IMG/VR virus record: IMGVR_UViG_3300036892_000014
Span: 19,882 to 83,881 of that record
Source: a virus
DNA: 64,000 bases
Reading direction: 5' to 3' (one strand)
This document shows, piece after piece, positions 19,305 through 27,363 of this stretch. Under the pieces are notes generated by a model that saw nothing but the letters and a program-made list of their open reading frames with translations, did not search any database and was not told where the DNA came from. Both the position numbers and the translations under genes were made by a program. Position 1 is the first letter of the stretch, and every line of letters begins with the position of its first letter.

Positions 19305-21421
19305 CGATTCAATTGACACCAGGCCAACAGGCTCTTGTCCCGGGATTTGGTACTCCCCCGGCAACGACAGGCGCTCCCGCCGAACAGACGGATGATAACA
19401 CGGCAGGAGCAGCGGCGCTCCAACCTGCGCCCGTGAATGGCGGCGCAACTATCGGACAGCGCATGGTCGCGAAGGGAAGTCCCAAATTGGACGCCTTCAC
19501 TGCTGGCTTAAATGCTATAGCTCAAACCAATCCGGCTCCAGCCGCCCCAGGCGCGTGGGCAAAGAATCTAGTCGCTGCTGTTCCACATTTGCTTGGTAAT
19601 GCAAGCTCGGCATTCGGTGATGCAGCCGCTGCGGGTGAGGGCCTTCGCCCTGGACAGGGCTGGCTGGCAGGAGCCGAGAAGACGGCGTCAGCGCACAGCG
19701 AACGTGTGGGTAAAGAGAAACAGCAACAGTTCGCGAACAGCCAAGAAGCCCAGAAGACTGCGGCACAGGTAGCATACAACCAAGCTGAGACGATGCAAAT
19801 TTCACGTAATATCCAGAGGCAAGATGCGGAGGCTCGCACGTCATCCGCTAACATAGGAAAGGCTGCCATTGATGCAGGAAGGGCGACTCACGATACAAAA
19901 GACAACATTCCAGATTCTGCGTTTCAGGACATGGTAAAGAAGAATCCAGATTACATGCAAACGCACTATGCGCAGATCACTGCGTACGAGCCCATGATCG
20001 GTCCAGATGGTAAGCAGATGATTGACCCGAAGACCAAACAACCAATCGAGAATCCTACTTGGTCAGTTCAGGAGCGTGCCCCGAAAGCGAATACGACGGC
20101 TCCAGTGACGATGACCAAGGCAGTTCACGATGACTGGGTAGCTGCTGGGATGAAAAACGTCCCCGACGTTGGCGTAGAGGTTCCGTACGACTCATTTCAT
20201 GATCTAGCTGGCACGGCGCATACTGTAGCAAATACGGTTCACCTAGCTAATCAAGACCGTAATGAGCAGCTAACGGATGAACAGATTCAGCAGAATCATG
20301 ACCTCTTTGCAAAGCCAGCCGTGGCAAACGCGATAGCTGCGGACCCGGCGCATGGTGCTATCGGCGGAATTCAGAAGTCATTGGACATTGCCAAACAGCA
20401 CGATCAGGCTTTGACTGCTCAGCTTGCGCTTGCACAAAAGAAGGGCGACACAGCAGCGGTCCAGAAGTTGCAAAGCACGCTTGCGGACGTGAAGCAACAA
20501 GAGGCCGATATAAACAAGGCTTATAGTACTTTTACGGCGAAAGACAAGCAAGACTATGCGAAAGACCTTGAGAAAGAGCGTGTAGACAACGCTGATATTC
20601 GTCAGAAGAATGCTGCGGCAGACAAAGACCAGGCGGATGCGCTAAAGACAAAGAATGATGCAGCGATGGAAGGCACGCTGAATCCCGCCGGGGCTAATGA
20701 CCTAACGGGTGAAACGTACTTGAATGCGCTGCCAGTTGGTCCGCGGAATGTGATAAAAGCAATCGCAGAGGGTCGTGAGACTCGCTCGTCTCGTCAGTTA
20801 CAAGACAAGAATGGCAACCCGTCGCCCCTAGCGATATCGTTACATCGTGCATATCCAGACCTCGACATTACAAATCTGACCGCCTATTCAAAACTTCGCG
20901 AGAAGTTTGAGACAGGTAAGGAATCAATTGCCCTGAACGGTGGTGGTACTGCATTGAAGCACTTGAGTGAACTACAGCAGTTAAACACGAATAAATCTCG
21001 TATCCCGGGCACTGATGATTACAACGCTTACAACAACAAACTAGACACACTTGCGGGTGAGTTGCTCACTTTCTACGGCACACCTCTAACCAATGAAAAC
21101 ATAGCGGGAATAAAGAAGACCCTCGGGGCCACTTTCAACAGGGACTCAGCTATCAAAACCCAGATAGGTTCTATGGGCGACAAACTTGTGAGCTATGAAC
21201 AGACTTGGAAGAATGGTCAACCCCGCCCTTCGTACACTCCACCGATGCCGAGCATTGACCCAGAAGCCAAGGCTGCGCTGATTCGTTTGGACCCACAGTT
21301 TGCGAAGGCGCATCCGTCTCTTTCAACCGTCAACATGAAGGCACCGGACGGCACAATCCAACCTGTTTCAGCCGATCAAGTCGATCACTTTAAGTCTCTA
21401 GGAGCCACGGTAGATAAGTAA
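19301..21421 (+). CDS. Putative DNA ejection / internal virion protein
   Basis: 706 aa, Ala/Gln/Lys-rich and helical, lies before the giant protein. Confidence 0.55.
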   Translation: MTIQLTPGQQALVPGFGTPPATTGAPAEQTDDNTAGAAALQPAPVNGGATIGQRMVAKGSPKLDAFTAGLNAIAQTNPAPAAPGAWAKNLVAAVPHLLGNASSAFGDAAAAGEGLRPGQGWLAGAEKTASAHSERVGKEKQQQFANSQEAQKTAAQVAYNQAETMQISRNIQRQDAEARTSSANIGKAAIDAGRATHDTKDNIPDSAFQDMVKKNPDYMQTHYAQITAYEPMIGPDGKQMIDPKTKQPIENPTWSVQERAPKANTTAPVTMTKAVHDDWVAAGMKNVPDVGVEVPYDSFHDLAGTAHTVANTVHLANQDRNEQLTDEQIQQNHDLFAKPAVANAIAADPAHGAIGGIQKSLDIAKQHDQALTAQLALAQKKGDTAAVQKLQSTLADVKQQEADINKAYSTFTAKDKQDYAKDLEKERVDNADIRQKNAAADKDQADALKTKNDAAMEGTLNPAGANDLTGETYLNALPVGPRNVIKAIAEGRETRSSRQLQDKNGNPSPLAISLHRAYPDLDITNLTAYSKLREKFETGKESIALNGGGTALKHLSELQQLNTNKSRIPGTDDYNAYNNKLDTLAGELLTFYGTPLTNENIAGIKKTLGATFNRDSAIKTQIGSMGDKLVSYEQTWKNGQPRPSYTPPMPSIDPEAKAALIRLDPQFAKAHPSLSTVNMKAPDGTIQPVSADQVDHFKSLGATVDK

Positions 21422-24400
21422 TGGCACAAGACTGGTTCGCACAGAACGCTCCGACCGCAACGGCAACCGCACCTGCGCCGCAGGCACAACCAGCGGCTCC
21501 AGCGCCTGCGCAAGCTGCGTCGGCACCAGCGGGCGGTGATTGGTTTACGAAGAATGCTCCGAAGCCGCAAGCAGCCCAGGCTAATGTAGAAGGTGCTCCG
21601 ACGCACATTCTTGAAGGCGGTGTCATTAAGCGTTTCGGGGAACGTCTCGGGCAGAGTCTCGGAATGCCGACGAACCAGGCAGAACTTCAGGCTGCGGCAC
21701 CGACAACGGGCGATTACGCTGAACTAGCAACAGGCACCAAGCCGCTGATTGACGCTGGCAAGATGCTGTACAATTATGGCAAGACGGCTCTTCAAGGCGC
21801 ACACGAGGCGGGTCAGGAAATCGGAGAAGCCGGAACGAACATCGCCGAAGGCGGCCCAGTCGGCGCAAACATCGGCAAGGCTGCGGGCGGCGTTCTACAT
21901 GGCGCATTGTCCGCTGTGCCATTCGTTGGCGCTCCGTTAGAGCAGGCCGGGGTAGACGTTCACGCCGGAAATTATGCCGGAACTATCGGCGGAATGCTTG
22001 GTGTGTTGGCACAGATCGAGGGACCGCATGCCGTTGACGAAGTTCTTCAATCACGAGCAGTGAAGTTGGCAGAGACAAATCACGCGTCTGCGGAAGCACA
22101 ACACAATATTCGTGTCAAGGAACTCGATACTCATCTAAACCAGGCGCAGGCGGCCTCCGCGGCAGCCGATCAAGCTGTGGCAGCCGAACAAGCCGGAACA
22201 GGAACCAGACAGCAAACCATTGACGCCAAGAATTACGCCAGCGAGGCGGCAGCCCAGGCTAAGAAGTCTCAGCAGGCCCTGGCCGAAGCTACCGTAGCAA
22301 AGAATACAGCGGCGTATGAGCGCGATAAGGTTGTGCGCAAAACAGTGGATGATGTGCAGAAGTCTAAGCCCGTCGTAGATCAGAAGCAGACGAAGGCACA
22401 AGCAGGGGCACTCGAAGACTCAATGAAGAGCGCACCTCCGGCAGCAAATGGTCCCGCTGCATATACAGTAGATGACGCTAAGATCGCCCGCGGTTACGAA
22501 GAACAAGAACACGCGAAGAAGCCAGTTACAACAATTCAGGGACGTGCCGAAGCACTTCAGAATATCTCGGACAGAATTGATGACCGAGTCGGTGAGTACG
22601 TTCAGGACTACGCGAACGAACCTATCTCCACAAATGTTAATATGGATGTACGCGGCGAACTCGCCAAGAGCCCGAAGGCAGACTTCGTTGAAAAGGGCAT
22701 GGCGGAATTGGAGAACTGGAATCTGACTGACCCGAGTATGGCAGAGGCTCAGAAGCTGGTTACGGATTTGAACGCGGAGAATCGTGCCACTCTTAAGAAG
22801 AACTTCTGGGATGTTGCGACTGCGCTCAAGGTCGATCCAGCCTTTGCAGCACGTCAGGCTGCACTGGATTCGCTGCGCAAGGGCATAGACGGAACGCTCG
22901 TGGATCACGGTGTCGATGGCGTGCGTCAACTTCGCAATGACCAAGCATCTATCATTCGCGTGAAGAGTGCCGTCGAGAAGCAAGCACTGAACGGCGATCA
23001 AGTTGTACGTGGTAGCGGCCAAGCTGGTAGATTGCGTAATTTCGCAGCTAGGAGCGCTGACAAGGTAGGGGCAGTCGGGGGCGGTATCAGTGGTGGAGTC
23101 GCTGGTGCTGCTTATGGCCCTGCTGCTAGCGTATATGGTATAATATCCGGCGCACGCATGGGCGAAGAACTTGGAAGGTGGGTCGGGAAGAAAATTCAGC
23201 CTGGTGATGTGACCAGAGATGCGCTCATAGAACGTAGTAACAAGACGACGGGCGCGGGCCGTGCGATTACAGATATCAAGGACAATAATGCAAGGCCGAG
23301 TAATCCCCCAGGCTTTCCAACGCCGCCTGCACCGACGGACGCATTATCGCAGCGCGACATACTTCAAATTCAACGTGAGCAGTCACCACTTCACGGCGAG
23401 CTAGCGACACACTTAAACAAGTCAGTTAACGATCCGAAGGCGTCATATGCTGCGTTAGAGAAGCAGTTCATGGACGATTATGAAGATAAGGTACGCAACG
23501 GTGTCAAGATTGAACCCGCCGACAAGCAACTATTCGGTAAGATAAACCAGCAAGACCTTTCCGACAATCAGGCTGTACAGAAGATGCAGCAAGAGCAAGC
23601 GGAGAAGGTAGCCGCCGGGCAGAAGCTTCTACCGACAGCAACCTTACCCGAGAATGCCGAGCCTGCGATGCAGATGCGCGGCAGAATGCAGAAGGGCATG
23701 AACACGCAGAACGCCCTCGTTCACGATATGGCGCACGCCGTGGTAGCTGATGAGATCATGGGCGACAAGCTTCCGAGCCTAGGTATTAACTCTCACCTAC
23801 ACCCAGAGAATGCAGGCACGAGCGCCGTCGCAACCGCGGCATTCGACTGGAGCAAGTTTGTAGACGAAGACGGCAATATGGACCCGAAGAAATTCGCACC
23901 AGCGATTGACGATCTTGCGACGGTCTTCGTATCGGGTGGCATTGCAAACGATTTGTTCCACGATATCCCGTTCACTGAGAACCATCACCTAGGAGCGGAC
24001 CTACATATTCTTCGCCGTTTGATGAATGCAATCGATATAGACAAGCCTACGCAGCAAGCTATTGTCACGCGTGCGGGCCAGAGAGCAGCAGAAATCCTAA
24101 GCCGTCCTGGTGTGGAAGACGTACTCCACGAACATGCGGCAGTCCGTGAGCCGGGGCTTGATTCACATATGCACGTTAGCCCAGAGAGAATGCAGCAAAT
24201 AATTCAAGACGTAAAGGGTGGAGACAATGAAGTCGGAAATGAGCCTGCAAGCGGCAATGGAAAGCCTAATCGGAACCCTGAACAAGGAGCCGAAGAACGA
24301 AGAGGAAAAGGAGCAGCAGAAGGCGCTAAAGCTGCAACTAAAGACGATGTGGGTAAAGTCGTCGGCAAAGAACGCGAAGGAAGCGCAGAAGGAACTGGAA

Positions 24401-27363
24401 AAGAAACAGGAAGCAAGCAAGCCGAAGGAATCAAGCCAGTCAACCCCTCGCTCGAAGAAAAGCCCGAGCTAACGCACCGCAAGACTCCGCAAGGTGGGGA
24501 AGTTAGCCTAGACAGCGAACAGAATGGGTTGATAAAGAACCGTGGCTGGTTGACGTATGCCAACGAGGGCGACACCGCGCACGTACGAGTATCCGACATG
24601 GACCAAGCGTTCCGTGGTCAGGGACACGGACAGAAGATGTATGAGCGTGCTGCGGACGAGGCTCGTGCAAATGGCTCGAAGGTTCTAGCCAGCGACGTGC
24701 CCGACCAGATGTCTACGGATGCTGTCCGCGTCTGGGACAAGCTATCTGAGAAGCACCCAGGCGAGATCGAGAAGACGCCGACGGGATACCGTTGGAACCT
24801 AGAAGCGAAGCCTGAGATCAAGCCAGAGAATCCTGCGCTAAGCGATTATCAAGTTCCAACTAGAAAACATTTAAGTACACCAGATGAGGCGTCGAACCCT
24901 GGTGCAACAGTAAAAACCATGCAGCACGAGTTGGGTCACTACATGGTCGGGCACAATGAGGGCTTAGAAGCGAAGGGGATATTGAGGCACACTCATCCAG
25001 ATGTGCCGAGCGGCACAAATGCGGCGGTATCGTGGGACACATCTATTCTCGACCAAAACACGGGTCGAGTTAAGCCGGAAAAGGTTCCAAGCGTGGTTCG
25101 AATGGCGATGGGCGGGATTGCTCAAGATGAAATCTTAGGCATTCCGAGAGCCGAGAATCGTAACTTCAATACCAAATTCTCAATTGGTGACGGGCGTCTT
25201 GCTAGGAAAATTCTCCACGACGCGGGCTACACACCCGAACAGATTGAACCGATGTTGCATCAGGCTATAGATGATGCAAAAGCGCACTTGACAAAGCCTG
25301 CGGTTTCTGATATTCTCAGGGAGAATGCAGGTACGAGAGAGAATGGTCTTTCGAACCAGTATCATTACAGCCCAGAACGCCTAAAGGCGATGGGAGACGA
25401 GGCAGCAAGGAGGATAGCAAATGAGCCTAACAACGGAGCAGCTATTACAGAAGGTGGCAGAGGACGTGCAGAAAATGTCGCCGGAAGAGAAGGCGAGGCT
25501 CAGGGAGCAGTTGGACAAGGAGTTCCTAAAGAAGGGATAAAGCCAGAGAATCCTGCGCTATCCAATGAAGATTTACAACGTGGCTTGAAAGAGACTACCA
25601 CAGGCAACCCCGACCACGATCAGATGATTCGAAACGCTGGCGGAATTCCTGCGGGCAACATGGGCGGCAAGCTGCCACTGTATCACGACCCGACATCTGG
25701 TTCAACGCTCGCCACAGAAGCGCACAACATGAGTGAGGCAGAGGTTCGCAGAAATTTACACGAATCTAGAGCAGCGTTTGCGCCGCAGAATGCCGTCGCA
25801 GAACAAGCGAAGTCTGGCGGCTTCAGTTTCAACCCGAAGGACGGTAGCGTCCCGAAGGACGGATACATGGTTGAGACCCATCTCGACCGCGGCAAGGACC
25901 TAGGTCACCCTCCGACAACGGACGACATCAAACAGTTTATCGCAGACAATAAGGACGTTCTGGACAAGAATCCGAACCTCCACGTCGGCGGTTGGGGTAA
26001 CACGCTAGGAATCTCAGAACGTATCGCTGACCAAGATGCTGCAATCAAGGCAGGCACAGACAGGAATCAGAAGGCTATCTTCGACGTGAAGAGCGGCAAG
26101 GACATCCAGACAGGCGGTACGGGCGCAGTGCCGATCAAACCCGCGAACCCAGCGCTTTCGAAGGCTCAGTACCCAGAAAATCCAGAGGGATTTGAGAATA
26201 TCCACCCCGACTTGTTGAAGAGCATGGAGCCGGACGAGAAGGAATTCGTAAAGGGTGACAAGCGTAAGCAGACTGCAATCGAAAAGTCTTACAATGACAT
26301 CAAGCCTACCATCGATGAAACCAAGGCAGCCATGCAAGCGGGTGGTGCTCTGGGCGGTTGGTGGCAGAGATTCATGGACACGTTCAAGGCACTCGGCGAG
26401 CCCACAGAGGCCGCGAAGATCGAGCAACTCGGCCCAGAGCATGCGGAGGCTTTGAAGGCTTGGCACTCAGCGGTATCGGGTAACAAATCAGTCTCGGACG
26501 CTAATAGAACTGCATGGGGCACCTACGCCGACTGGCTAGACCAGGGTCGCCCGAAGGATCGCGAATCAATTAACAAGATCGTTGCGGCGAATGGGAAGCC
26601 AAAAGGCAATGCTGCAATATCAGATACCATCAAGAACGGTAAGGTCATCAACAAGGGATTGGATACGACGAAGCTGCACAGCTTAATCAACTCTCCGCAG
26701 ATGCGCGACGTGAATCCTGAGCCGTTTCACGGCGGTATATTCAATCCGAACAACCCGAGTCCAATAGCGGGTGTGTCGAACGGTGCTAGGAAGATTCCGT
26801 CAATGGGCGCTACCGTAGCTGGCGAGGGAAACCTGAATCGCTTGGTGCTCGACGCTCACATGCTCGACTTTTACGGCGAGAACGGTTGGACGGATAATAA
26901 GTACATTGCGCATTCTATTCACCTTCGTCAGGCTGCCGAGGAACTAGGCTTGAAGGCTGGAGAAGGGCAAGAGCAGATATGGGGCACTGTTCTAGGTATT
27001 AAGAAGTTGTTACGTGAGGGTGTGCCTACTAGCGACATACCGCACGAGCTAACAAATGATGTTGTAAATTCTATCGGAAAGGACTATGCTGATATCATCA
27101 GGGAAGACCCAGAGCTGAATACGATATTTGAACAGCTCAAGAAGCATGGGATCGACCCGGGAGGCACACGTGCTCAATCAAGACTCGCAGAAATTACCAA
27201 CAAGCCAGCAGTTAAAGAAACGGGAGCTAATCAAGACCTTCTTACAAATGTTGCTGAAAGAATCAAAGGAAGGCTCAAGAACCTCCCAGAAGCCGACGAC
27301 TCCAGCTTCAACTTTGGAGCAAACGTAAAGTCGAAGGCAGGACTCGCTGCGCTCAGGCATTAA
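21421..27363 (+). CDS. Giant polyvalent internal virion protein (1980 aa): two M41/zincin-like modules, a GNAT domain and C-terminal domains
   Basis: VHDMAHAVV (~23719) and QHELGHYMV (~24922), each followed by GGIA...D...HxSPER; GNAT FRGQGHGQKMYE...SD..MS.DA..VW (~24600-24740); LDAHM...AAEELGL...QEQIW C-terminal domain. Confidence 0.75.
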   Translation: MAQDWFAQNAPTATATAPAPQAQPAAPAPAQAASAPAGGDWFTKNAPKPQAAQANVEGAPTHILEGGVIKRFGERLGQSLGMPTNQAELQAAAPTTGDYAELATGTKPLIDAGKMLYNYGKTALQGAHEAGQEIGEAGTNIAEGGPVGANIGKAAGGVLHGALSAVPFVGAPLEQAGVDVHAGNYAGTIGGMLGVLAQIEGPHAVDEVLQSRAVKLAETNHASAEAQHNIRVKELDTHLNQAQAASAAADQAVAAEQAGTGTRQQTIDAKNYASEAAAQAKKSQQALAEATVAKNTAAYERDKVVRKTVDDVQKSKPVVDQKQTKAQAGALEDSMKSAPPAANGPAAYTVDDAKIARGYEEQEHAKKPVTTIQGRAEALQNISDRIDDRVGEYVQDYANEPISTNVNMDVRGELAKSPKADFVEKGMAELENWNLTDPSMAEAQKLVTDLNAENRATLKKNFWDVATALKVDPAFAARQAALDSLRKGIDGTLVDHGVDGVRQLRNDQASIIRVKSAVEKQALNGDQVVRGSGQAGRLRNFAARSADKVGAVGGGISGGVAGAAYGPAASVYGIISGARMGEELGRWVGKKIQPGDVTRDALIERSNKTTGAGRAITDIKDNNARPSNPPGFPTPPAPTDALSQRDILQIQREQSPLHGELATHLNKSVNDPKASYAALEKQFMDDYEDKVRNGVKIEPADKQLFGKINQQDLSDNQAVQKMQQEQAEKVAAGQKLLPTATLPENAEPAMQMRGRMQKGMNTQNALVHDMAHAVVADEIMGDKLPSLGINSHLHPENAGTSAVATAAFDWSKFVDEDGNMDPKKFAPAIDDLATVFVSGGIANDLFHDIPFTENHHLGADLHILRRLMNAIDIDKPTQQAIVTRAGQRAAEILSRPGVEDVLHEHAAVREPGLDSHMHVSPERMQQIIQDVKGGDNEVGNEPASGNGKPNRNPEQGAEERRGKGAAEGAKAATKDDVGKVVGKEREGSAEGTGKETGSKQAEGIKPVNPSLEEKPELTHRKTPQGGEVSLDSEQNGLIKNRGWLTYANEGDTAHVRVSDMDQAFRGQGHGQKMYERAADEARANGSKVLASDVPDQMSTDAVRVWDKLSEKHPGEIEKTPTGYRWNLEAKPEIKPENPALSDYQVPTRKHLSTPDEASNPGATVKTMQHELGHYMVGHNEGLEAKGILRHTHPDVPSGTNAAVSWDTSILDQNTGRVKPEKVPSVVRMAMGGIAQDEILGIPRAENRNFNTKFSIGDGRLARKILHDAGYTPEQIEPMLHQAIDDAKAHLTKPAVSDILRENAGTRENGLSNQYHYSPERLKAMGDEAARRIANEPNNGAAITEGGRGRAENVAGREGEAQGAVGQGVPKEGIKPENPALSNEDLQRGLKETTTGNPDHDQMIRNAGGIPAGNMGGKLPLYHDPTSGSTLATEAHNMSEAEVRRNLHESRAAFAPQNAVAEQAKSGGFSFNPKDGSVPKDGYMVETHLDRGKDLGHPPTTDDIKQFIADNKDVLDKNPNLHVGGWGNTLGISERIADQDAAIKAGTDRNQKAIFDVKSGKDIQTGGTGAVPIKPANPALSKAQYPENPEGFENIHPDLLKSMEPDEKEFVKGDKRKQTAIEKSYNDIKPTIDETKAAMQAGGALGGWWQRFMDTFKALGEPTEAAKIEQLGPEHAEALKAWHSAVSGNKSVSDANRTAWGTYADWLDQGRPKDRESINKIVAANGKPKGNAAISDTIKNGKVINKGLDTTKLHSLINSPQMRDVNPEPFHGGIFNPNNPSPIAGVSNGARKIPSMGATVAGEGNLNRLVLDAHMLDFYGENGWTDNKYIAHSIHLRQAAEELGLKAGEGQEQIWGTVLGIKKLLREGVPTSDIPHELTNDVVNSIGKDYADIIREDPELNTIFEQLKKHGIDPGGTRAQSRLAEITNKPAVKETGANQDLLTNVAERIKGRLKNLPEADDSSFNFGANVKSKAGLAALRH
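24227..24472 (+). CDS. Nested +1-frame small helical ORF inside the giant protein (81 aa)
   Basis: GGTGGAG SD then ATG24227; MKSEMSLQAAMESLIGTLNKEPKNEEEKEQQKALKLQLKTMW...; host frame is low-complexity G/E/K/A here. Confidence 0.45.
   Translation: MKSEMSLQAAMESLIGTLNKEPKNEEEKEQQKALKLQLKTMWVKSSAKNAKEAQKELEKKQEASKPKESSQSTPRSKKSPS
25421..25540 (+). CDS. Nested +1-frame small helical ORF inside the giant protein (39 aa)
   Basis: AGGAGG (25408-13) 7 nt before ATG25421; MSLTTEQLLQKVAEDVQKMSPEEKARLREQLDKEFLKKG*; stop falls at the IKPENPALS linker. Confidence 0.55.
   Translation: MSLTTEQLLQKVAEDVQKMSPEEKARLREQLDKEFLKKG

Follow-up and report, generated by a model that had tools for sequence, protein, structure and literature searches.

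Two small open reading frames nested in a giant phage gene

The window analysed here is a stretch of 64,000 nucleotides (nt) from an 83.9-kb uncultured virus (IMG/VR record IMGVR_UViG_3300036892_000014, positions 19,882 to 83,881), in which the genes for the portal and the major head protein share the + strand with a series of large late genes. Downstream of the portal and major head genes and on the same strand lies the gene of a giant virion-module protein, hereafter the host gene, with two peptidase modules resembling the M41 family and one GNAT module (Table 1). An earlier reading of this DNA from its letters alone (the sequence-only reading) had proposed that each peptidase module is directly followed by a hidden gene in the +1 frame, and the layout that it described was recovered here. 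Both modules end in HxSPER, and the +1-frame ATG of the first open reading frame (ORF1) stands 37 nt past HVSPER and that of the second (ORF2) 40 nt past HYSPER, preceded by purine-rich AAGGGTGGAG and by AGGAGG, respectively, so that a Shine-Dalgarno (SD) site and a start do occur within about 50 nt of each module end. SD sites are in general use by this phage, being found at 26 of the 33 genes of the window. Both ORFs lie wholly within the longer same-strand gene in another frame and correspond to host residues 936-1018 (ORF1) and 1334-1374 (ORF2), across which the host frame is rich in G, E, A, R and K, as expected from the low complexity ascribed to it. The claim that the ORFs end at or just past an IKPxNPxL linker also held, since ORF1 ends 19 nt beyond IKPVNPSL and the stop of ORF2 lies inside the Ile-Lys codons of IKPENPAL. 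Across the homologous loci described below, two kinds of host codons form the nested stop, namely the G-(I/V) codons (host 'EGI/V' or 'KGI'), in which ATA or GTA has A or G as the next base, and the K-L-G codons of PENPKLG, the end of the nested gene coinciding with the next linker motif of the host; this pattern was seen in the window, in L025-L030 and in other loci.

Within this single genome, the nested ORFs are not beyond chance. When the host gene was resampled synonymously, the probability of an open +1 frame given the host amino acids was 0.10 for ORF1 and 0.47 for ORF2, with 0.14 for the counterpart of ORF1 in the homologous locus L009 and 0.1-0.86 per locus overall. The host gene contains 17 stop-free +1 runs of at least 40 codons, and alternative-frame ORFs of like size occur elsewhere in the window, for example one of 84 amino acids (aa) at 22472-22726. 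Because of these resampling values and long runs, the openness of the +1 frame was rejected as stand-alone evidence, and since the single-genome data are within chance, support for the nested genes comes from the comparison with relatives.

Table 1 Positions in the window of the host gene, its modules and linkers, and the nested reading frames with their start signals
Feature	Position	Strand	Remarks
Host gene	21421..27363	+	1980-aa polyvalent virion-module protein; modules set apart by IKPxNPxL motifs
M41-like module 1	23692..24189	+	Ends in HVSPER (24172-24189, aa 918-923); active-site motif HDMAH, not HExxH
SD-like site of ORF1	24214..24223	+	Purine-rich AAGGGTGGAG, from host K-G-G codons
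Nested ORF1	24227..24472	+	+1 frame, 81 aa, stop 24470-24472; divergent member of the module-1-type peptide family
Host linker IKPVNPSL	24430..24453	+	Motif search of host protein
GNAT acetyltransferase module	24538..24741	+	Pfam PF14542 (E 4e-6), PF00583
M41-like module 2	24841..25380	+	HELGH at 24925-24939, GGIAQDE motif; ends in HYSPER (25363-25380, aa 1315-1320)
SD of ORF2	25408..25413	+	AGGAGG, 7 nt before ATG, from host Arg-Arg codons
Nested ORF2	25421..25540	+	+1 frame, 39 aa, stop 25538-25540; predicted two-helix hairpin, pattern LTTEQL...MSPEEKAxLR
Host linker IKPENPAL	25537..25560	+	TAA stop codon of ORF2 formed by ATA-AAG

Conservation of the nested frame, its start codon and its SD site

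No relatives were found among GenBank phages by blastn or tblastn, and a single-protein scan of viral contigs gave no match. A large protein database contained 18 host homologs of 1119-2567 aa, all of which carry G/A/E/K/T-rich stretches following HxSPER, and homologous DNA was retrieved by pattern scans with the called small homologs and with alignments of the host protein and of the nested peptides. These scans gave some 25 homologous module ends with host identities of 29-58% (11 of the module-1 type, 13 distinct nested ones of the module-2 type and the distant L006), in which the +1 ORF and the SD site are retained, as is a start codon in the same position; the conservation of SD, ATG and open +1 frame on which the sequence-only reading had staked its claim is thus present. 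Third positions are about 0.66 divergent among these loci, indicating that they are not near-identical copies. The +1 translation was open and alignable after each homologous module end examined, and every viral-contig copy lies wholly nested in the +1 frame of a giant same-strand ORF of 1480-2163 codons.

The module-1-type peptide pattern 'QGSLQxLxxQA...LEPEQK..LRKGIQQSFDQRGRDLLKEKA' was found in nine loci, to which the window and L009 add a divergent pair to make 11, and the module-2-type pattern 'LTTEQL..K.A.DV..MSPEEKAE.RK.L' in 13 distinct loci. In the distant L006, with 29% host identity, the ORF is kept, with TAAGGAGA and then GTG. In all 11 module-1-type loci the start follows HxSPER at an offset of 28-40 nt, or once 64 nt, the start codon being ATG in nine and GTG at the same position in two, and AAGG(G)AG-type sites stand 7-10 nt before the start in most of these homologs. 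The host residue at these starts is N, D, H or Y (codons NAT, with G as next base), and since this residue varies, it is the ATG that is conserved and not the host amino acid. All 13 module-2-type loci start with ATG, again at a fixed offset. The host Arg-Arg pair before that start is encoded by AGG-AGA in 10 of 12 loci, by AGG-AGG in one and by CGG-AGA in one, in genes where AGG makes up 1-14% of Arg codons and CGN 55-93%. The rare AGG-AGA pair is thereby kept in a way that retains (A)GGAG 4-7 nt before the start, outside the nested coding region.

The same Arg codons could instead mark a programmed +1 frameshift after AGG-AGA, which would produce truncated polyprotein isoforms with a helical tail and not free small proteins. 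Tandem rare Arg codons and an upstream SD-like element are known to stimulate +1 shifts; in addition, the nested-type domain of L049, a relative outside the polyprotein that is described below, is situated at the C-terminal end of a longer protein. However, in the window a +1 TAG separates AGG-AGG from the ATG of ORF2, and in most loci a +1 stop is placed 1-5 codons ahead of the nested start. With +1 stops directly before the starts, there is no usable path for a +1 shift. Furthermore, ATG or GTG is retained in all instances, although a frameshift needs no start codon, no shift-prone codon was found in the gap, and the resemblance of L049 to 'SPER' is not significant. A -1 shift from the nested frame back to the host frame was also rejected for want of a conserved slippery heptamer, as an in-frame X XXY YYZ heptamer occurs near the nested stop in 2 of the 13 module-2-type loci and in none of 10 module-1-type loci. 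The combination of a slippery sequence with an open path, by which a programmed frameshift site would be recognised, was not found at these loci (frameshifting is reviewed in PMC5009743). We regard a programmed +1 frameshift as very unlikely, and infer that internal initiation is the economical reading of these signals.

Selection on the two frames

In the peptidase domains, the mean pairwise variability at host codon positions 1/2/3 was.34/.20/.66 (module 1) and.39/.34/.57 (module 2). In the overlaps the values were.52/.45/.41 (ORF1) and.43/.44/.23 (ORF2), the wobble position being the least variable. When the same columns were read in the +1 register, ORF1 displayed the normal coding pattern (.45/.34/.53), and in ORF2 the second position was by far the most conserved (.45/.23/.44). 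In a scan of the whole host gene in 11 loci with a sliding window of 30 codons, third-position variability was lower than first-position variability in five windows only, which cover aa 933-1018 and 1331-1365; the other approximately 90 windows were normal, including those over the chance 84-aa ORF at 22472-22726. The ratio of nonsynonymous to synonymous change (pN/pS; uncorrected Nei-Gojobori, with synonymous sites near saturation) was 0.58 in the +1 frame of the ORF1 type, against 1.12 in the host frame on the same bases and 0.35 in the upstream peptidase domain (module 1); for the ORF2 type the corresponding values were 0.51, 1.40 and 0.45 (module 2). The inverted codon positions together with these ratios indicate that selection in the spacers acts on the nested frame and that the host frame there is an unconstrained tether. 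Purifying selection in the +1 frame, the check proposed with the sequence-only reading, is therefore present, and host synonymous variation is suppressed as expected for an embedded gene, while for ORF1 the comparison of the window with L009 alone is ambiguous.

These data bear on the possibility that the ORFs are chance by-products of purine-rich low-complexity linkers, which would be conserved for host-frame or nucleotide reasons such as RNA structure or module-shuffling recombination sites. Openness of the +1 frame is cheap, as the range of resampling values and the long +1 runs of the host gene show, and alternative-frame ORFs of the size of the nested ones are common. However, only in these two segments does variation follow a three-base period in the +1 register, with the least variability at the host wobble position, host-frame pN/pS exceeds 1 in the overlaps, and a constraint at the nucleotide level would not favour +1 second positions. 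Moreover, non-overlapped homologs of the nested peptide exist, and the chance 84-aa ORF is without such a signal. With loci that are far from near-identical, these comparisons appear to have largely refuted the chance explanation, which we find hardly credible. The nested ORFs are very probably real genes.

The weaker case of ORF1

On the available alignments ORF2 appears secure, whereas ORF1 of the window has much weaker support. L009, its only close DNA relative, shares with it 41% identity, the start, the offset and the N-terminal SLQxAMExLIGxL and LKTxWxK blocks. We therefore weighed the alternative that ORF2 is real and ORF1 of the window is decaying or non-functional, its frame being open because a purine-rich linker seldom yields +1 stops. 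In keeping with decay, the family profile of the module-1-type peptides (A3) misses ORF1 at E <= 1 in the phage's own genome, the ORF1 sequences of the window and L009 together match the family profile at an hhalign probability of 12% (E 0.0024), their pN/pS is similar in both frames (0.76 in the +1 frame and 0.72 in the host frame), and the SPEEK/EPEQK turn motif of ORF1 is replaced by an insertion. However, both the window and L009 retain an open frame and a start codon at the same offset with an SD-like site, the two N-terminal blocks are conserved between them, and the probability of an open frame by synonymous resampling was low in each, as given above. ORF1 of the window may thus have diverged with its function intact, or it may be in the course of decay; we consider its decay rather unlikely, though a serious option.

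The nested products and their relatives outside the overlaps

The products of the nested ORFs had been claimed to be helical. The AlphaFold2 (AF2) model of the ORF2 product, computed from a 52-sequence alignment, is a two-helix hairpin with helices at residues 5-18 and 21-36 and an MSP turn between them (predicted local distance difference test score, pLDDT, 87), in agreement with that claim. The profiles of the module-1-type (A3) and module-2-type (A6) peptides matched each other with an hhalign probability of 96% (E 2.6e-9), and the module-1 peptide profile finds ORF2 of the window at E 9.8e-6. These matches indicate that the two nested peptides are paralogous, suggesting that module and nested gene were duplicated as a unit.

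Outside the overlaps, the domain was found in databases in 48 called small proteins and in 14 longer ones, and the module-1 peptide profile gave 13 database matches, one of them fused to a two-helix membrane tail. Among these 62 called homologs the DNA context was examined for P0092, which is L049. It is a stand-alone gene of 127 aa among small same-strand genes on contig CAVRDM010000013.1 of an Acidobacteriota metagenome-assembled genome (MAG), with neither a long overlapping frame nor a polyprotein homolog near it. L049 matches the nested-type domain at hhalign E 3.9e-15 and is the sole match to this domain in 185,579 species genomes. Acidobacteriota are thus a likely host group of these phages, or else the L049 contig may itself come from a phage and have been binned into this MAG. 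A 'SPER helix in frame with peptide' was considered in L049 and rejected on the lack of significance mentioned above. The 85-aa family gave no match in the first genome-contig scan, and neither it nor the 'LLAMPVSxxVN' family was found free-standing in IMG/VR, where each viral match was another nested copy.

An intermediate layout was observed in L015. There the host gene ends 60 codons after HFSPER, and the small gene is retained, overlapping only the 3' tail of the host gene and extending 52 nt past it. The next gene downstream of this shortened host gene (L015:1695-2345) encodes a collagen-like protein of GXY repeats.

No known family was matched by the nested peptides in Pfam or PHROGs. 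Sub-threshold matches were obtained with BESS, Toxofilin-like, PF09720 (one of nine members, E 0.079) and phrog_15974 (unknown function, E 3e-4), and ESM Atlas gave no usable lead (score 0.75). A likeness to the LTxxQ, Spy-CpxP and DUF3106 families goes as far as the helix starts LTTEQ and MSPEE, which resemble the family motif at that level only; P0078 matches DUF3106 at E 0.004, below the cut-off, and none of nine nested peptides matches it.

Two further features of the free-standing relatives were seen. First, these proteins often end in ...GKPVN, ...GEWIN, ...GETIN or ...REWIQ (P0045-P0052, P0085, P0086, P0093, P0027, P0054 and P0092), similar as far as the Asn to the linker IKPxN|PxL. Cleavage of the linker may take place after this Asn, and the ...KPxN C-terminus may itself be a signal. 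Second, in P0087 and P0090 the nested-type domain is combined, in opposite orders, with another domain of unknown kind ('..G(I/V)E/P.T.E.YL..AF.G.PP..'), which suggests shuffling of small modules.

The host protein and its peptidase modules

With two M41-like modules and one GNAT module in one giant phage polypeptide, the host protein has the at least two enzymatic or effector domains that mark polyvalent proteins. It contains four IKPxNPxL and two HxSPER motifs, the linkers not listed in Table 1 being located at 24817-24840 and at host aa 1572-1579. The GNAT domain is the sole domain of the host protein recognised by Pfam; there is no nested ORF after it, and the codon-position pattern there is normal.

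The sequence-only reading had called both modules zincin- or M41-like, and this label fits both, module 2 by its fold and module 1 by paralogy to module 2. The AF2 model of module 2 (pLDDT 88) aligned with the FtsH protease domain 3kds_F over 150 residues (Z 14.7, root-mean-square deviation 2.8) after VIA re-alignment, and the best 22 structural entries by VIA were all of the FtsH family. Foldseek E-values were weak (>= 8e-3), so the clear M41 match comes from the VIA re-alignment alone, and the module-2 sequence profile gave no meaningful match against PDB sequences. In an alignment of 12 homologs of module 2, HELGH is invariant and the GG(I)A(A/Q)DE motif is present. Module 1 matched the module-2 profile with an hhalign probability of 99.3% (E 6.9e-21, 165 columns), indicating that the two are paralogs. 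In the window, module 1 has HDMAH (23700-23720, aa ~767-772) and GGIANDL where module 2 has HELGH and GGIAQDE, and its relatives have H(D/E)(L/M)AH at the active-site motif, so module 1 of this phage may be catalytically altered or inactive. Pfam found no AAA domain in the host protein (P0001), which sets it apart from FtsH proper with its AAA+ ATPase and membrane anchor; judged from the model, module 2 is a stand-alone homolog of the M41 protease domain without AAA+.

The database protein for the host gene (P0004) has 1899 aa, 81 residues fewer than the longest ATG ORF, and no SD-like site precedes the start at 21421; the true host start may be elsewhere. Short contigs from peat metatranscriptomes of two studies matched the host gene with 100% identity at 22716-22992, 24487-24669 and 25099-25269. 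Another RNA contig of 207 nt, at 25053-25259, differs at 15 positions and is from a related strain.

Proposed role and origin of the nested genes

The explanation that we favour, and in which we place considerable confidence, is that the ORFs are genuine embedded genes with their own internal initiation at SD and ATG and small two-helix products. They would be translated from the late mRNA of the polyvalent protein, each encoding a small two-helix domain, in ORF2 a (L/M)TxEQ helix followed by an MSPEEKAE(L/V)R helix and in ORF1 a longer, diverged version. Each nested gene would exactly fill the spacer from the last helix of an M41-like module, at HxSPER, to the next PENPxL-type linker motif, with selection on the nested frame and the host frame serving as a free disordered tether. 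Made alongside the giant protein, the small protein might bind its own peptidase module as a trans-acting partner, its likeliest role being that of a latch or inhibitor, or a docking subunit, which keeps the peptidase silent or correctly assembled until delivery. Such a partner role is suggested by three observations: the nested genes follow M41-like modules only and neither the GNAT module nor the later linkers, they were kept when the module was duplicated, and they are still present where the host protein comes to an end. An adaptor role would agree just as well with the occurrence of the domain on unrelated proteins, and we therefore hold the partner role, as latch, inhibitor or docking subunit, to be plausible but somewhat short of an even chance.

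Several observations weigh against these proposals. For the existence of the genes, they are the chance expectation within this one genome, the similar ratios of the two frames of ORF1 between the window and L009 together with the poor match of this pair to the family profile, the saturation that affects the uncorrected ratios, and the peat RNA contigs, which cover fragments of the host gene only and are silent on translation and transcript ends. For the partner role, the small products matched no known inhibitor, antitoxin or immunity family in Pfam or PHROGs, the domain is also fused to unrelated partners, such as a REC-domain protein or a transmembrane tail, in proteins without a peptidase, and the nested position could merely reflect a permissive linker. 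The last two points lead to the alternative that the nested products are real but have a function unrelated to the peptidase, the disordered linker being the only spot that tolerates a second frame. The free forms of the domain and its fusions to various other partners favour this alternative. Against it, nested genes occur after M41-like modules only, they were retained through the module duplication, and the small gene remains with its module in L015, where the host gene ends. We consider a function unrelated to the peptidase unlikely.

The sequence-only reading had proposed a mobile unit of effector domain and nested gene, of which joint inheritance stands, as seen in the paralogous peptides and in L015. 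The function of inhibitor, immunity protein or chaperone that it put forward is a candidate one, and the free and fused forms of the domain would suit docking or adaptor work no less than inhibition. It had also described the nested gene as an overprinted partner, and here the nested gene holds as real, with the direction of overprinting probably reversed. Free-standing relatives of the nested domain exist, and the host frame over it is unconstrained and of odd composition. The overprinted frame is therefore more likely to be the host linker, with the small gene as the older of the two. The host linker would have arisen by out-of-frame read-through of a pre-existing small gene upon the fusion of neighbouring effector genes.

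Comparison with known systems

Embedded +1 genes are known in phages and overprinting is known in viruses. In the two-component spanins, lambda Rz1 lies inside Rz in the +1 frame (PMC5295617, PMC6139136). The likeness to the present case consists in a small +1-frame gene with its own start that is fully contained in a longer phage gene and whose product is thought to cooperate with that of the longer gene, and in the range of layouts. Spanin genes are embedded, overlapped or separated, and here most loci have the small gene nested, with an overlap at the 3' end in L015 and a gene of its own in L049. In contrast to spanins, the nested products described here are unrelated and without signal peptide, lipobox or membrane segment, and the host is a multi-effector protein of 1980 aa with two paralogous nested genes, each within a disordered inter-domain spacer.

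Zincin metallopeptidase domains occur in the polyvalent proteins of phages and of conjugative elements, and for these domains autoprocessing of the polyvalent protein or action as an effector was proposed (Iyer et al. 2017, PMC5512222). The host protein resembles them as a giant multi-domain virion-module protein with peptidase and other enzyme domains, but genes nested in spacers are absent from the architecture described in PMC5512222. The terms 'overlap', 'frameshift', 'linker' and 'low-complexity' do not occur in that paper, and 'reading frame' occurs once, for separate neighbouring ORFs. Module 2 matches FtsH/M41 in fold and has the HELGH and GGxAxDE motifs; differences from FtsH are the lack of an AAA+ ATPase and membrane anchor, the HDMAH of module 1 and the position of the modules inside a phage polyvalent protein. 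With effector-immunity and toxin-antitoxin pairs the nested genes have in common a small partner gene immediately 3' of an enzyme domain, inherited with it as a unit; here, however, the partner is nested out of frame in a continuing polyprotein, and any neutralising action of it is putative. In viral overprinted gene pairs (reviewed in PMC8227390 and PMC3494269), as here, bases are shared, one frame is ordered and under purifying selection, and the other is biased and disordered. The difference is that constraint here falls on the short nested frame, for which free-standing relatives exist, so that the long host frame is the apparent newcomer, pointing to an origin by fusion across a pre-existing small gene and not to de novo birth of a small ORF. 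The literature searched gave no description of genes nested in polyvalent-protein spacers, in accord with the earlier statement that the arrangement was not known as described.

Implications for the biology of these phages

Gene callers miss nested genes fully when the host ORF is intact, and a conserved small-protein family of soil phages, which probably infect Acidobacteriota, is for this reason absent from annotations. What passes for a 'disordered linker' in a polyvalent or ejected protein can thus be coding sequence in a second frame, which alters how such linkers are read and engineered, since replacing host codons by synonymous ones would abolish the nested gene. The nested genes also provide a clear natural example of a gene pair whose overprinted newcomer would appear to be the long frame instead of the short one, as well as a handle on how peptidase domains in virion polyproteins are held in check or timed. 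As a tentative scenario, which we hold to be possible more than probable, the giant polyvalent virion proteins of these soil phages may have been built by fusing effector genes across small partner genes, so that the linkers are out-of-frame read-through and the partners survive nested within them, where they would latch or dock cargo to the M41-like peptidase and control PENPxL processing and activation after ejection.

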